Shown: piece after piece, positions 1,514 through 18,540 of the stretch
How positions within the stretch are numbered: the first letter of the stretch is position 1
Layout: every line of letters starts with the position of its first letter
IMG/VR virus record: IMGVR_UViG_3300045988_105923
Length of the DNA: 50,563 nucleotides
Direction: 5' to 3' (one strand)
From: a virus
The notes under the pieces: model-generated
The model's input: the letters and a program-made list of their open reading frames with translations, nothing else
Databases searched by the model: none
What the model was told of the DNA's origin: nothing
Translations under genes and position numbers: made by a program

Positions 1514-2233
1514 TTATTGATCGTTGGTTTCCATCTCATATTCTAATTTTTCTTCATTTACAATGTACATTTTATCGGTATATGTTTCTATTCCATCAAT
1601 ATGTTCGGATAGTTTGGGCTTAATGTGTTGTTTCATTGGGTCCAGTATAAAATCAATTCCGCTTTTTCTTGCCATCTTCGCTACAGGAATGAAATCGCTA
1701 TCTCCTGCAATTAAAACGATTTGGTTTACATATTTTCCATAAGATAAAGAGGCTACATCCAGACCTATTCTCATATCGACGCCCTTTTGTTTAACATCTA
1801 ATTTAAAGTCATCTTTGGTTAAATCAGAAATTAACTTCTTTTCTGATATAATTTCAGATAACGCAGACGGCTTTAAAATATAAGTGGCTTGCGATTCAGC
1901 CAATTCTCCGCGCCGAATTGCAAATTTTCTTTTTTTGGATAGAGCCTCAAAAAATGCATTTGTCCAGCGTGTTCCAGCCATTTCTGCATACGATATGGTT
2001 TCTTTTGTGAGCGGATGAATAATCTCACGTGTCATTGGGGGGCAGTCATAATAAAATATTCTATATAAATCGCGAGGTTCATCTGGCTCTGATATATGAA
2101 GTAAGCAGTACCTGAATAATTCATCTGCGCGTTCAGCAGCGGTTTTGTTTTTCCCCCATAAAGCGATGGCTCGCTTTCTATAATATCCTCCGTCTACAAG
2201 AATTGCGGTTTTTCTAGTCTCTCTTATATTCAT
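1514..2233 (-). CDS. NYN (LabA/DUF88-like, PIN-fold) domain protein, copy A
   Basis: It carries TAILVDGGYY near the N-terminus and a later GVDMRIGLD...IVLIAGDSDFIPV motif, both typical of NYN ribonuclease-like domains. A GAGG RBS precedes the ATG. Confidence 0.8.
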   Translation of the reverse strand: MNIRETRKTAILVDGGYYRKRAIALWGKNKTAAERADELFRYCLLHISEPDEPRDLYRIFYYDCPPMTREIIHPLTKETISYAEMAGTRWTNAFFEALSKKRKFAIRRGELAESQATYILKPSALSEIISEKKLISDLTKDDFKLDVKQKGVDMRIGLDVASLSYGKYVNQIVLIAGDSDFIPVAKMARKSGIDFILDPMKQHIKPKLSEHIDGIETYTDKMYIVNEEKLEYEMETNDQ

Positions 2234-2250
2234 AGTCTCCCTCGATATAT

Positions 2251-2309
2251 AAAAATAAAACCTCTGGGGTCAGATCATCCCGAAAGGTGGGAGCCCTCGC
2301 CCAGAGGTT
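2251..2309 (-). terminator. Intrinsic-terminator-like hairpin in the leader of the NYN-A gene (possible attenuator)
   Basis: A 10-bp stem forms between AACCTCTGGG (2259-2268) and CCCAGAGGTT (2300-2309). On the minus strand it is followed by TTTTATTTTT. It sits between the promoter at 2344-2372 and the RBS/ATG at 2233. Confidence 0.5.
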
Positions 2310-2343
2310 ATGATAGCTTATACAGCTCTTTGCTGTATGATAT

Positions 2344-2372
2344 ATATTATGCTCCCAAATTGAATTTGTCAA
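2344..2372 (-). promoter_or_regulatory. SigmaA-type promoter reading toward NYN-A
   Basis: On the minus strand, TTGACA (2372-2367) is followed by a 17-nt spacer and TAATAT (2349-2344). Confidence 0.6.
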
Positions 2373-2590
2373 TAGTTTTTATTCGTGTTTATTTCTGTAT
2401 ATTCAAACTTGTTCGAGTGGGTTAGTGTTTGTAAGTGTTTATTTGATTAAATTATCAGGTGATTCCTGACGGCGGCTTTTCACTAGAATGAAAACCTATC
2501 ATAGAAAGTAAAATTGTGGTATAAAAGTAAAGACCACTAGATATAGGTCAATACAAAATATAAATGGAAAGAATTGTGAAAATCTGCTGA

Positions 2591-2619
2591 TTGCCTTATA
2601 TTCTCCTCGGTGCTATGAT
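2591..2619 (+). promoter_or_regulatory. Plus-strand promoter overlapped by a LexA box
   Basis: TTGCCT (2591-2596) is followed by a 17-nt spacer and TATGAT (2614-2619). A TG sits at the extended -10 position. Confidence 0.5.
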
Positions 2620-2633
2620 ATTATCAAATCACT

Positions 2634-2647
2634 AGAACAAATGTTCT
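2634..2647. promoter_or_regulatory. Cheo-type LexA (SOS) box
   Basis: AGAACAAATGTTCT is a palindrome matching the Gram-positive consensus GAAC-N4-GTTC. It lies about 15 nt downstream of the -10 element. Confidence 0.6.
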
Positions 2648-2671
2648 CAAACGAGGAGGGGCAACTGGAAT

Positions 2672-2833
2672 ATGGATGAACGAGATATGACCTGCGGTGA
2701 ATTGCTCTGCGAAAGAGTCGATAATGAAAATGATTTTATTTCATTTCTTCGCTTTTGCGCTGATCGGCTAAATAAAGACGAGCCAGTTCAATCAATTTGG
2801 AACGCCTATCAAGAGATAAGGAATCAAAAATAG
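2672..2833 (+). CDS. 53-aa ORF downstream of the LexA-controlled promoter, either a candidate SOS-induced antirepressor or a carrier of antisense RNA
   Basis: The product reads MDERDMTCGELLCERVDNENDFISFLRFCADRLNKDEPVQSIWNAYQEIRNQK. A GAGGAGG RBS sits 11 nt upstream. The 3' 98 nt are antisense to the repressor gene. Confidence 0.35.
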   Translation: MDERDMTCGELLCERVDNENDFISFLRFCADRLNKDEPVQSIWNAYQEIRNQK

Positions 2834-3059
2834 ATAAGATTTCAGCTTTACCGTCCTCAGAAATGGGGGCGGTATTTTTTTCGCCCAAAATATCTCCGAC
2901 GGTCACTCCGAGCGCCGCTGCGACTTTAGACACACGGTCTATAGACGGAGAACTTTTATCCCATTTATTTATTGTCCCGTTTCCAAAACCGCATTCTTTT
3001 TCCAAAGAAAATAAAGATTTTCCAGTTAAAGAACACAATTCTCTAATCCTGTCGACCAA
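2736..3059 (-). CDS. CI-like XRE-family HTH repressor without an S24 peptidase domain
   Basis: The HTH_3 motif is IRELCSLTGKSLFSLEKECGFGNGTINKWDK...VSKVAAALGVTVGDIL. The C-terminal tail is short. The gene is oriented with the integrase. Confidence 0.85.
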   Translation of the reverse strand: MVDRIRELCSLTGKSLFSLEKECGFGNGTINKWDKSSPSIDRVSKVAAALGVTVGDILGEKNTAPISEDGKAEILSIFDSLSLDRRSKLIELARLYLADQRKSEEMK

Positions 3060-3083
3060 AAAATCACCCCTTGAAAATAATTA

Positions 3084-3126
3084 GTAAATTTCCTAAATTT
3101 TTGTTGACAATCGGTAAATTTGCTAA
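3084..3126. promoter_or_regulatory. Two copies of the 13-mer GTAAATTT(C/G)CTAA, candidate operators
   Basis: The copies are at 3084-3096 and 3114-3126, exactly 30 nt apart. The second fills the spacer of the plus-strand promoter. Confidence 0.4.
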
Positions 3127-3132
3127 TATAAT
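3104..3132 (+). promoter_or_regulatory. Consensus sigmaA promoter (early lytic, PR-like)
   Basis: TTGACA (3104-3109) is followed by a 17-nt spacer and TATAAT (3127-3132). The -35 lies in the palindrome TTGTTGACAA, which also gives TTGTCA on the minus strand toward the repressor. Confidence 0.7.
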
Positions 3133-3263
3133 AGAGGCATAGGGTAACAAAAACCAAGCCCCTATATGATACGGGCCTAATCGGAATATATGTAATTGTA
3201 TCAGCAATTCAATGTTAGCATATTTTCCGATTTCCGTCAAGGAAAAGGAGGGTGTTTTCTAAT

Positions 3264-3782
3264 TCATTTTAAGAAATTTTGGGAGGGAGGGATTTGTTTT
3301 TCTGATAGAAATTTACTGGAAGATTCATAAATCGCTTTTACTCTTTCATAATTCTTCCAAGTATAAAGAGGCCCAGTATAGTGAGGGAATCCAGCATTTC
3401 CAGTCCAAAATGTGTTTGCGCAATCAAACGCTGCAATCAATGCGGACGTAAACTTTTCGTAGTTTCTTCTTTTGGCTCCATCTGTTTTTAAGGTCTCGAT
3501 TTTCTTCTGATTGCTCTCCAATGCACGATCTATAAACTTATCGACTGTTAACTCTATATTTTCCAATATTATATTGTAGTCATGTGTTGGAGTAGCCCCT
3601 TTAAATATTTTGTATTTTTCATATTGCGATAAATGAAGAAGCAAATCTAATGTAAAATTGATCCTTCCAAAAAACACCGCTGGATTTACAGTTGTATTTA
3701 TCAATTTTTCGCTGTCTTTGAGCTGTCGTATATTCGATTCGATACATTGGATTTCGGACCTTGATAGTTTTTTCCAAAACAT
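3264..3782 (-). CDS. Hypothetical protein encoded between the repressor and cro (an immunity-region moron)
   Basis: A long AT-rich ORF with no motif I recognise. The start is uncertain: either the ATG at 3782 with AGGAGG 15 nt upstream, or the GTG at 3821. Confidence 0.6.
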   Translation of the reverse strand: MFWKKLSRSEIQCIESNIRQLKDSEKLINTTVNPAVFFGRINFTLDLLLHLSQYEKYKIFKGATPTHDYNIILENIELTVDKFIDRALESNQKKIETLKTDGAKRRNYEKFTSALIAAFDCANTFWTGNAGFPHYTGPLYTWKNYERVKAIYESSSKFLSEKQIPPSQNFLK

Positions 3783-3867
3783 AATCGTAAATATCTCCCT
3801 CCTTTGTCCCAATAATATCACTAAGGGGGGGACGATTCAAGAAGATATTCCAATCGGAGGTGATACC

Positions 3868-4089
3868 TTGATTCTTGACAATATCAAGCGTCTTTGTCGG
3901 GAGAACAGCATAAACATCACGGCCTTGGAGAAGGCTGTCGGACTTGGTTTCGGGACGGTTTACAAGTGGGGTAAGGTTTCTCCCAGCGTGGACAATCTGA
4001 AACTGGTAGCCGATTATTTCTGCATCACGGTGGACGAGCTTCTTTCAGAAGATAGCAGCACCAACAGAGAAAAGGAAGCCCTCCAATGA
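3868..4089 (+). CDS. Cro-like XRE-family HTH regulator
   Basis: A TTG start sits 7 nt after GGAGG. The HTH motif is LDNIKRLCRENSINITALEKAVGLGFGTVYKWGK...LKLVADYFCITVDELL. Confidence 0.75.
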   Translation: MILDNIKRLCRENSINITALEKAVGLGFGTVYKWGKVSPSVDNLKLVADYFCITVDELLSEDSSTNREKEALQ

Positions 4090-18123: not shown

Positions 18124-18540
18124 TTATTTACCAAGGATAGCGTTGATAACCGAACTTTTATTCCAGCCGACCATTATATCTGCATTATTCTGGATTTTAA
18201 CTGGAATCCTCTCTTGTCCCCAAGGTTTTAACCCGATTATATATTTTCCCTTGGAAACAGATGTATCAATTTCAAAGTCAATCCAATCGCTATAGGCAGC
18301 ATACATCCCAGAAATAACAATTATTTTTGATGCGGGAGAAATCTGGTTTTCTAGTAATTTTTGGAGTTTATTTTTTCCTACTGTAGTGGAGGGATCAACC
18401 AAAGGATCATGATATGGAACAGAATAGTTACTCCAATTTAATATCCCGTCTGCTTTTGCTTCATCGATCCACTTGACGACCGTCTGATAATCGTCAGAAT
18501 ATTTCCATGCGTGACTAATGAAAATGTGATAATGATCCAT
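18124..18540 (-). CDS. TIR-like domain protein (ThsB/DUF1863 family)
   Basis: The ATG at 18540 follows AAGGAG. The product begins YHIFISHAWKYSDDY (betaA) and contains KIIVISGMYAAYSDWIDFEIDTSVSKGKYIIG, which matches the S-x-W-x(3)-E catalytic-Glu region of TIR/ThsB-like domains. The gene is AT-rich. Confidence 0.75.
   Translation of the reverse strand: MDHYHIFISHAWKYSDDYQTVVKWIDEAKADGILNWSNYSVPYHDPLVDPSTTVGKNKLQKLLENQISPASKIIVISGMYAAYSDWIDFEIDTSVSKGKYIIGLKPWGQERIPVKIQNNADIMVGWNKSSVINAILGK

Follow-up and report, generated by a model that had tools for sequence, protein, structure and literature searches.

A locus in a 50,563-nt viral sequence (IMG/VR record IMGVR_UViG_3300045988_105923; the whole stretch is hereafter called the window) is probably an SOS-inducible antirepressor unit of a temperate phage, repressed by LexA and acting on the C-terminal tail of the phage repressor. 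The host is Dysosmobacter/Pusillibacter (Oscillospiraceae, human gut), as identified via the flanking genes of integrated copies. The locus comprises the following features.

2506..2707, + strand: conserved cassette with an A/T-rich stretch, promoter, LexA box, ribosome-binding site (RBS) and the first 12 codons (MDERDMTCGELL)
2591..2619, + strand: predicted sigma-70-type promoter, TTGCCT-17-TATGAT with an extended −10 TG (consensus scan)
2634-2647, no strand assigned: candidate LexA (Cheo/SOS) box AGAACAAATGTTCT, at about +8 to +21 of the promoter
2653..2659, + strand: putative RBS GAGGAGG, 12 nt 5' of the ATG (read from the sequence)
2672..2833, + strand: 53-aa small gene, putative antirepressor, ATG start (listed ORF); residues 1-12, conserved leader; residues 13-53, specificity part
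2849..2881, + strand: predicted intrinsic terminator of the small-gene transcript, hairpin 2849-2874 plus T7 (terminator scan)
2736..3059, − strand: repressor, 107 aa, TTG start (Pfam HTH_26/HTH_3)
2886-3059, − strand: repressor HTH domain, residues 1-58
2853-2885, − strand: repressor disordered linker, residues ~59-69
2739-2852, − strand: repressor C-terminal helical hairpin, residues 70-106

In a lysogen, host LexA bound to AGAACAAATGTTCT, just 3' of the −10 element, would block an otherwise constitutive promoter, as the motif, position and conservation of the box suggest. DNA damage would lead to RecA-stimulated LexA cleavage and free the promoter. A transcript of ~255 nt would then be made, ending at the terminator inside the DNA for the repressor linker, a step backed by the conservation of the hairpin and by covariation. 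Its translation would yield a 53-aa helical protein that binds the C-terminal helical-hairpin oligomerisation tail of the repressor. We infer this binding from the co-segregation of the small protein with the tail type, from tail homology in three of the variant types described below (D, E, and F), and from the mechanisms of AimX/AimC and SinI/SinR. Once bound, the repressor could no longer dimerise or oligomerise on its operators near the early promoter (3104-3132), and induction of the phage would follow. Convergent transcription may contribute, as may antisense pairing with the final ~146 nt of the repressor mRNA.

The initial annotation had left the SOS link to either a LexA-controlled antirepressor or an antisense RNA. 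Judging from sequence comparison and analogy, the antirepressor is most likely the best explanation, and an antisense RNA acting by itself is less supported. The evidence favours the protein over a purely antisense mode of action, because the ORF is conserved across unrelated variants and is under purifying selection, and because AimX provides a precedent.

The small gene, the repressor and the terminator

The 53-aa ORF and its GAGGAGG RBS were found where the initial annotation had placed them. A purine-rich GGAG block followed by GCAACTGGA is kept in all diverged versions. The 12-nt gap between the RBS and the ATG is rather long. The same promoter, box and 12-codon leader are joined to at least six unrelated C-terminal parts (types A to F; the window carries type A), and the resulting ORFs, all 49-57 aa long, stay open. 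The pN/pS ratio in the non-overlapping parts was 0.28-0.42 (about 0.3), with 16 synonymous differences at 37 sites and 22 non-synonymous differences at 155 sites in the pooled non-overlapping codons. Within the overlap, synonymous divergence falls in both reading frames. The leader of one relative (L078) contains an in-frame indel. Based on the conservation of the ORF and the purifying selection, we judged it to be coding, and it appears to be a real gene. Matches to the 53-aa ORF in L011-L024 were set aside, being best explained as homologous repressor tails on the opposite strand; some of these copies have in-frame stops.

Three helices were predicted in the small protein (residues 8-15, 19-33, and 37-52), and its AlphaFold2 model had a pLDDT of 86. 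A PDB sequence search with the 53-aa protein returned no match and Foldseek no significant fold match, and the small proteins matched no Pfam or PHROG family.

The repressor lacks an S24 autopeptidase domain, in agreement with the initial annotation; its only Pfam matches were HTH_26/HTH_3. Neither an S24 domain nor an ImmA or Ant-type gene was found among the ORFs of the immunity/early region, scanned to ~16 kb. The AlphaFold2 model consists of the HTH domain, the linker and the helical hairpin, with pLDDT values below 50 at residues 61-67. Its top fold match in the PDB was SinR in the SinI complex (1b0n_A; Foldseek, 100/103 columns, E = 1.2e-3), with a high RMSD owing to the flexible linker, and the SinR HTH was the top, albeit weak, PDB sequence match. 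As modelled, the repressor is a SinR-like, HTH-only protein. Among its homologues, HTH domains and tails are shuffled.

The terminator on the + strand, absent from the description in the initial annotation, is embedded in the DNA for the codons of the disordered linker. All 11 overlapping versions that we compared (types A, C, D, E, and F) had a hairpin of −17 to −25 kcal/mol followed by a T-run at the equivalent place, and 5 of the 10 stem pairs showed compensatory changes. In variant B, the sole + strand terminator likewise lies in the linker. The predicted transcript thus extends from ~2626 to 2881. The 98 nt over which the initial annotation had the transcript run antisense to the repressor gene is the correct figure for the ORF overlap; given the terminator at 2849-2881, the overlap of the transcript itself would be ~146 nt. 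Because the terminator is located in the linker, the transcript would always cover the whole tail-coding part, even in the non-overlapping variant B.

Co-segregation of the small-protein type with the repressor tail

The type of small protein tracks the repressor tail, not the HTH domain and not the integrase. The small-ORF type remained constant with the tail when the HTH domain changed, over at least three different HTH partners in type A, at least three in type F, and two in type E, and the type A small protein was found with serine as well as with tyrosine integrases. Moreover, in parallel alignment, three types have a small protein similar to the cognate tail (F2, 12/24 identical, p = 0.0002; F, p = 0.0005; D, p = 0.004; E, p = 0.02), and the cognate small-protein/tail pairing ranked within the top 7 of 720 permutations.

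The window's own pair, of type A, showed no sequence similarity between small protein and tail (p = 0.17), type A small proteins compared with type A tails gave an hhalign probability of 0.1, and in types B and C the small protein has no significant similarity to the tail. Since the type A pair has no such similarity, tail binding in the window's phage rests on linkage and analogy. No Pfam SinI-type helical-hook domain was detected at E ≤ 10 in six small proteins and four tails; these small proteins and tails match no Pfam family, and hence not the SinI family of Pfam. The small ORF overlaps the gene for the tail in five of the six types, by 38-98 nt, and the overlap phase is identical in all variants (2 mod 3). 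The co-segregation of small ORF and tail is partly forced by this physical overlap.

The constant overlap phase and the terminator in the repressor linker of every variant would also be compatible with an effector that is the RNA or transcription itself, as was originally proposed for aimX. Convergent transcription and the ~146-nt antisense would then reduce the amount of repressor made in full length, whether by colliding polymerases, cleavage of the duplex, or a truncated, tail-less repressor, and the ORF would be secondary. We consider this unlikely. It leaves unexplained the six unrelated open frames of 49-57 aa, the pN/pS of ~0.3 in non-overlapping codons, the conserved leader peptide with its synonymous changes, and the parallel tail homology in types D, E, and F. 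The transcript shows no unusual degree of structure (z = −1.8), and Rfam contained no known RNA family matching 2200-3900. Furthermore, the antisense effect was experimentally negligible in phages phi106 and phiW23, and a recoded aimX allele was functional while a start-to-stop mutant was not, indicating that the protein is required and the antisense RNA dispensable (bioRxiv 10.1101/2025.11.23.689978).

A protein that is SOS-induced and does another job is somewhat more doubtful still. The small gene sits between the integrase and the immunity region, and its product is close in size to GIL01 gp7 (50 aa) and to small Xis proteins, so that a recombination directionality factor, a LexA modulator like gp7, or a host cell-division or toxic peptide might be considered. 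The first of these was rejected in view of the pairing of type A with both integrase classes. The invariant 12-residue leader could touch a constant partner, and the type A protein has no similarity to its own repressor tail; however, the variable part follows the repressor tail, homology to the cognate tail is present in types D, E, and F, and six or more unrelated specificity parts in phages of one host group would be superfluous for a protein that binds LexA or acts on the host. Action on the repressor tail remains our preferred reading of the small protein.

The promoter and its candidate LexA box

The promoter proposed in the initial annotation was borne out by a consensus scan: TTGCCT at 2591-2596 and TATGAT at 2614-2619 are separated by a 17-nt spacer, with the TG of the extended −10 element at 2611-2612 and transcription predicted to start at ~2626. 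Just downstream, as had also been noted, lies AGAACAAATGTTCT (2634-2647), which matches GAAC-N4-GTTC, 14 nt 3' of the extended −10 element and 5' of the RBS. It is the single occurrence of this motif across the 50.5-kb window and contains a perfect 12-mer palindrome. By itself, a lone copy is unremarkable, because 0.7 bare GAAC-N4-GTTC matches per window are expected by chance; what makes the box significant beyond chance is the combination of its matrix score, its placement at the promoter and its conservation amid diverging flanks.

The initial annotation had suggested scanning with a Firmicutes LexA matrix. Using a matrix of 30 experimentally validated B. subtilis sites, we obtained 18.2 bits for the box and 12.0 bits for the runner-up site in the window. 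The box outscored 25 of the 30 validated sites (leave-one-out; median 16.3), and no site in 20 shuffles reached 18.2 bits.

The cassette was ~100% identical between contigs differing in both their left flanks (serine or tyrosine integrase, NYN gene, membrane proteins) and their right flanks (ORF C-terminus plus repressor); as most copies are near-identical, they do not provide independent evidence. In four diverged promoter contexts from related gut phages, the box was either unchanged or CGAACAAAAGTTCT. Differences were confined to one N4 base and one flank base, and the promoter spacers were ~35% identical. The spacer has diverged in L047, L072, L077, and L078, with TTGnnn-17-TGnTATnnT retained, and the box lies 9 nt from the −10 element in L072, L077, and L078. 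Between the window and L077, 6/17 spacer positions and 12/14 box positions are identical, and the palindrome is fully kept. Because the cassette is common to phages with different repressor HTH domains, the factor binding the box cannot be immunity-specific.

The GAACAAATGTTC core, as in the box, is bound by B. subtilis LexA in EMSA (PMC3998124 Table S4), and in gut metagenomes the exact 14-mer of the box precedes a uvrB-type gene (PMC3998124 supplements). The site of clostridial LexA proteins is GAAC-N4-GTT(C/T) (PMC4234289). No LexA gene was found in the related loci, 573 kb in total, and the matches in a protein search with B. subtilis LexA as the query were all from Bacillus. In L079/L010, which carry a related small protein with another leader, the LexA box score was 0 bits, so that SOS control is not universal in the small-protein family. 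For the window, these sequence data support a high-scoring Cheo-type LexA operator positioned to block a sigma-70-type promoter.

It is very improbable that the palindrome matches by chance, or that it is an operator for another regulator, encoded by the phage or the host, with the promoter outside SOS control: about one GAAC-N4-GTTC per 50 kb arises by chance, the scoring used B. subtilis sites and not the host's own motif, and most cassette copies are near-identical, but against this stand the score of 18.2 versus 12.0 bits with none in shuffles, the retention of the box in diverged promoters despite changed flanks and spacing (14 versus 9 nt from −10), its occurrence with different immunity types, a sign that a host factor is involved, the binding of the core by LexA in vitro, and the candidate operators of the repressor (AATYRGTAAATTT and others), which are unrelated to the box.

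The heptamer CACTAGA, for which three copies had been reported (2481, 2535, and 2630), is present as listed but at chance level, and we rejected it as a signal. Some 7-mer occurred at least three times in 29% of simulated intergenic regions, TATGATA is likewise found three times, and copies 1 and 2 of CACTAGA are not conserved in relatives.

Relation to known systems and wider meaning

The initial annotation had compared the locus with coliphage 186 Tum and the Gifsy-type phages. Only the logic is shared with these; the closest analogues are AimX/AimC and SinI/SinR, in both of which the C-terminal oligomerisation hairpin of the repressor is the target of a small helical protein. In coliphage 186 (Tum), Gifsy (GfoA/GfhA), and N15 (AntC), a LexA-repressed antirepressor links a non-cleavable repressor to the SOS response, as we propose here. 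These antirepressors differ in being unrelated, mostly larger proteins, their LexA boxes are of the CTGT-N8-ACAG type, and their genes are neither convergent with nor overlapping the repressor gene. Mimicry of an oligomerisation hairpin is not known among them.

In SinI/SinR of B. subtilis (PDB 1B0N), the repressor is similar in size and architecture (107 aa in the window versus 111 aa for SinR), the antagonist is helical and ~55 aa long, and SinI is homologous to the C-terminal hairpin of SinR, as are the small proteins of types D, E, and F to their repressors. In contrast to the locus described here, sinI precedes sinR and shares its strand, is controlled by Spo0A and not LexA, and belongs to a chromosomal developmental switch rather than a phage; in addition, the window's type A antagonist and tail have no sequence similarity.

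The AimX/AimC pair of the 'extended arbitrium' Bacillus phages (phi106, phiW23, and BMBtp14) shares with the window a short HTH-only repressor that has no autocleavage domain and is built from an HTH, an unstructured linker, and a small helical C-terminal oligomerisation domain. In both, the repressor gene faces a very small convergent ORF (AimX, 29-80 aa), which in many cases extends into its 3' end, antirepressors differ greatly from one another and co-vary with their repressors, and a cro-like gene lies on the other side. The window also has a candidate LexA site just 5' of the small ORF, as in the phi106 family. In phi106, the small aimX ORF behind the LexA site runs into the 3' end of aimC, and AimX binds the C-terminal oligomerisation domain of AimC; according to Kabel et al., very few aimC/aimL homologues exist outside arbitrium systems (bioRxiv 10.1101/2025.11.23.689978). 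Unlike these systems, the window has no AimR/AimP upstream, and LexA is apparently the sole input. The genes 5' of its small ORF are an NYN-domain gene and a serine recombinase, and those in relatives are tyrosine integrases, or membrane or Zn-ribbon proteins. The host also differs (gut Oscillospiraceae, of the Clostridia, not Bacillus), interchangeable specificity parts are joined to an invariant promoter/LexA-box/leader cassette, and the linker codons hold a dedicated terminator, whereas aimX transcripts can cross all of aimC.

Two further systems from Firmicutes phages, Sar/SroF of SPbeta-like phages (bioRxiv 10.1101/2025.11.27.690993) and GIL01 gp7/LexA (PMC4551915), likewise combine a LexA box with a small protein that decides induction. 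Sar is a DNA mimic that inactivates an integrase-fold repressor (bioRxiv 10.1101/2025.11.27.690993), gp7 binds LexA itself in a phage with no CI-like repressor (PMC4551915), and neither has the tail-linked, antisense-overlapping layout. The S. aureus phiETA2 locus was rejected as a counterpart because its layout differs. A tblastn search of 50,697 phage records gave only HTH-level matches below 60% identity, with Bacillus outside the ten commonest organism names listed, and a blastn search of cultured phages gave no match.

More tentatively, the locus could be a plug-and-play SOS-induction cassette, in which an invariant LexA-promoter/leader is recombined with interchangeable modules, and represent an ancestral, arbitrium-free core; we regard this as possible rather than probable. 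The antirepressor, encoded antisense to the oligomerisation hairpin of the repressor, may in some lineages have descended from that hairpin, and the terminator in the linker codons may double as a joint for shuffling DNA-binding domains and tails. Bacillus arbitrium systems may later have been built on such a LexA/small-antirepressor circuit. The conserved leader may have a separate, constant function, e.g., as a degron or a host-factor contact.

Within the metagenome collection, 317 index blocks contain the repressor protein and 153 a related small protein, indicating that the cassette is common. Gene callers predicted the small ORF on 13 metagenome contigs, which, set against the 317 blocks, reflects the tendency of annotation pipelines to report one gene of such an overlap, be it the repressor or the small gene. 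The locus also offers a clean example of overlapping antisense genes with a terminator-in-linker design. The AimX/AimC principle, described in late 2025 for Bacillus arbitrium phages only, would be extended to arbitrium-free phages and to another bacterial class. In the dominant gut Clostridia, where little has been learnt about DNA-damage sensing by prophages, many prophage repressors have no self-cleavage domain; the locus provides a concrete candidate route, from LexA through the 53-aa protein to the tail of a SinR-like repressor.

The phage and its promoter–LexA box cassette

The window holds a temperate phage genome of ~50 kb, in which a serine recombinase is followed by an NYN-domain gene, the immunity region and the replication genes. 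Its left part contains the following features.

Features from the integrase to the repressor gene
52-68 and 83-99: attP-like 17-nt inverted repeat, 94% complementary, arms 14 nt apart
118-1479, - strand: large serine recombinase, beside this repeat
1514-2233, - strand: NYN-domain protein (PHROG 5783, E=5e-80), between integrase and cassette
2591-2596, + strand: -35 element TTGCCT, then a 17-nt spacer, extended -10 TG (2611-2612) and TATGAT (2614-2619)
2634-2647: LexA box AGAACAAATGTTCT
2653-2659, + strand: RBS GAGGAGG
2672-2833, + strand: small ORF, 53 aa, ATG start
2736-3059, - strand: repressor, 107 aa, convergent with the small ORF (98-nt overlap)
2849-2874, + strand: terminator hairpin, then T7, 16 nt past the small ORF stop codon and within the repressor gene
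2853-2885: codons of the repressor linker (GE-KNxAP-xEDG), the HTH/tail joint in the repressor alignment (A3), which also encode the antisense terminator

The phage/host junction of an integrated copy (L064), at ACAGAGG, falls inside the attP-like repeat, so the window seems to be an entire phage genome in excised or circular form. In metagenome scaffolds with integrated copies, the exact proteins of the flanking genes are named Dysosmobacter hominis or Pusillibacter faecalis; judged by these neighbors, the host belongs to the human-gut Oscillospiraceae. The NYN-domain gene is found in some relatives and missing from others, and thus has the appearance of an accessory gene or moron.

The promoter, palindrome, RBS, 53-aa ORF and convergent repressor gene described in the initial annotation were all found at the positions it gave. 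The motif GAAC-N4-GTTC occurs once in the window and 0.7 copies are expected by chance, so its presence proves nothing by itself. We derived a position weight matrix from 30 B. subtilis LexA sites with experimental validation (PMC3998124 Table S1). The scan with a Firmicutes-type matrix, proposed earlier, returned the box as the best site in the window: the 16-mer at 2633-2648 scored 18.2 bits on this B. subtilis matrix. This value exceeds those of 25/30 training sites (leave-one-out), was reached in 0/20 shuffles, and lies 6 bits ahead of the second-best match. The latter (CCGAACTTTTATTCCA, 18150-18165, 12.0 bits) falls within the low-GC segment at 18-20 kb, where a - strand ORF has its 3' end, and is probably not functional. 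B. subtilis LexA binds two human gut metagenome sequences, TCGAACAAATGTTCTT and TCGAACAAATGTTCGA, in EMSA, and a uvrB gene (COG0556) has the exact 14-mer AGAACAAATGTTCT in its upstream region (PMC3998124 supplements). GAAC-N4-GTT(C/T) is the site used by clostridial LexA proteins (PMC4234289). The CACTAGA heptamer, which the initial annotation found three times in this spacer, was rejected, its repeats being neither significant nor conserved.

A stretch of about 200 bp (~2506-2707), which comprises the promoter, the box, the RBS and the first 12 codons, hardly varies among many viral and metagenome contigs that differ in both their left and right flanks. Near-identical copies were not counted as independent, and diverged versions were sought through homologues of the small protein. 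Among these related loci, L047 has a diverged -35 element and spacer; the spacers of L072, L077 and L078 are only ~35% identical to that of the window (6/17 by our own count), and their -10-to-box distance is 9 nt vs 14 in the window. All four retain TTGnnn-17-TGnTATnnT and, after it, AGAACAAATGTTCT or CGAACAAAAGTTCT (15.6-17.2 bits), and the palindrome is thus an island of conservation. The same cassette is used by phages whose repressors differ widely in their DNA-binding domains; the factor that binds the box must therefore be one that they all share, pointing to a host protein and not to an immunity-specific phage repressor. Close relatives of the type A protein (the window's own type) in L079 (2380-2653) and L010 (2850-3108) begin with another leader (MKPTLKEQ / MTPTIKDQ); their promoter has an extended -10 but lacks a LexA box (AAGAAGCATTGTGCCT, 0 bits on the B. 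subtilis matrix). SOS control goes with the cassette and does not extend to all members of the small-protein family. Given its motif quality, position and conservation, the box is very probably a functional LexA operator, at which LexA would bind in this host.

The small ORF and its terminator

At codon 13, the invariant leader MDERDMTCGELL gives way to one of at least six C-terminal sequences that are unrelated to each other (types A-F), and the frame stays open for 49-57 aa with each type. In the non-overlapping part, pN/pS was 0.33 for A vs A2, 0.28 for L079 vs L010, and 0.42 for F vs F2 (pooled, 16 differences at 37 synonymous sites and 22 at 155 non-synonymous sites). Synonymous divergence was 0.15-0.17 within the overlap vs 0.40-0.45 adjoining it, and this drop in both reading frames marks both strands as coding. 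The L078 leader contains an in-frame codon indel. AlphaFold2 predicted three helices for the small protein (best model pLDDT 86), which had no family match in Pfam or PHROG and no fold match in the PDB. The ORF is very likely a translated gene.

All overlaps with the repressor gene are 2 mod 3 (98, 86, 38, 68 and 77 nt; window 2736-2833, L035, L040, L036, L048, L072, L078). Unrelated sequences thus have the same antisense phase, which could reflect a coding-compatibility constraint or common origin.

In 11/11 overlapping versions examined (types A, C, D, E, F), the equivalent place holds a hairpin (-17 to -25 kcal/mol) with a T-run. Ten different versions aligned to a consensus stem of 10 pairs, five of which show compensatory double changes. 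Type B has no overlap between small ORF and repressor gene, and the sole + strand terminator still lies in the repressor linker. An additional 89-aa ORF containing a CxxC motif (L037, 8659-8928) stands between the LexA-controlled small ORF of type B and this terminator; type B also has a 60-aa - strand ORF after the repressor.

The predicted transcript, from ~2626 to 2881 (some 255 nt), would be antisense to the entire tail-coding part of the repressor mRNA (~146 nt). Antisense or convergent-transcription effects may contribute, but they leave the protein-level constraints unexplained. Of the two products envisaged initially, a LexA-controlled antirepressor or an antisense RNA, these constraints favor the protein and argue against RNA as the sole explanation.

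The repressor and the target of the small protein

Pfam identified only Cro/C1-type HTH domains in the 107-aa repressor and no S24 peptidase, in agreement with the earlier claim that it lacks an autopeptidase. In the AlphaFold2 model, the HTH domain (2-58) is followed by disordered residues 61-67 (pLDDT <50) and a helical hairpin (70-80, 83-106), the tail. The terminator occupies codons of the disordered linker, the least constrained segment, which is why it is tolerated within the repressor gene. The best of 350,000 PDB chains for the model was 1b0n_A (E=1.2e-3 over 100 aligned columns), which is SinR in complex with SinI; a PDB sequence search gave the SinR HTH domain as a weak top match. 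Repressor homologues are mosaics, in which one HTH occurs with many tails and one tail with many HTH domains, joined at the linker. The terminator hairpin may serve as the recombination joint for this shuffling.

Features beyond the repressor gene
3079-3096 and 3109-3126: 18-nt direct repeats, 30 bp spacing, flanking the next promoter
3104-3132, + strand: perfect TTGACA-17-TATAAT promoter
3179-3192 / 3219-3232: related inverted pair AATCGGWAAWWTWTG
3264-3821, - strand: 172/185-aa gene (PHROG 7974, no Pfam), between repressor and cro-like gene
3868-4089, + strand: cro-like HTH gene

The repeats at 3079-3232 are candidate operators at which the repressor would control early and maintenance promoters that face each other. 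The gene at 3264-3821, opposed to the presumed early promoter, may be a lysogeny-expressed moron.

Each small-protein type always pairs with its tail type, a linkage that is partly forced by the physical overlap. HTH partners vary (at least three for type A, three for F, two for E), and the type is independent of the integrase, type A being found alongside both serine and tyrosine integrases. Aligned in parallel orientation, the small protein's variable part resembles the cognate tail in F2 (12/24 identical, p=0.0002), F (p=0.0005), F3 (p=0.003), D (p=0.004) and E (p=0.02), and the cognate pairing ranked in the top 7 of 720 permutations. No such similarity was found for types A (the window's own), B and C, in which the small protein and tail share only a helix-turn-helix-hairpin architecture. 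It is fairly likely that the small protein serves as an antirepressor whose target is the repressor tail.

Regulatory model and known systems

In the best-supported reading, LexA would repress the small-ORF promoter in the lysogen. DNA damage would remove LexA, allowing the 53-aa helical protein to be made; by binding the C-terminal oligomerization hairpin, this protein would prevent the repressor from occupying its operators. The analysis itself established the motif quality, placement and conservation of the box, the coding status of the ORF, the terminator, the architecture of the repressor and the linkage to its tail; LexA binding in this host, damage inducibility and the contact between the two proteins are inferences. 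The interpretation in the initial annotation was essentially right, and the finding is real. The Tum and Gifsy antirepressors that it named have nothing but the regulatory logic in common with this locus.

Among known systems, AimX/AimC from the 'extended arbitrium' phages of Bacillus comes closest (bioRxiv 10.1101/2025.11.23.689978). AimC-type repressors are short HTH proteins without an autocleavage domain, consisting of an HTH, an unstructured linker and a helical oligomerization domain; AimX is encoded by a convergent 29-80-aa ORF, often overlapping the 3' end of the repressor gene. In phi106, a LexA site lies directly upstream of the aimX ORF, and recoded and start-to-stop alleles identified the AimX protein, not an antisense RNA, as the effector. 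Its authors, Kabel et al., themselves likened AimX/AimC to SinI/SinR, and reported very few aimC/aimL homologues outside arbitrium systems (same preprint). The present locus differs in having no AimR/AimP genes, a host of another bacterial class, an invariant promoter/leader cassette with swappable specificity parts, and a dedicated terminator in the linker; no homology of its proteins to AimX/AimC was apparent, and tblastn against 50,697 phage records gave only HTH-level matches below 60% identity.

Rather than a new principle, the locus offers a clean, widespread and experimentally tractable example from phages of gut Clostridia. Its genetic economy is unusual, combining overlapping antisense genes, a terminator within linker codons and a modular cassette.
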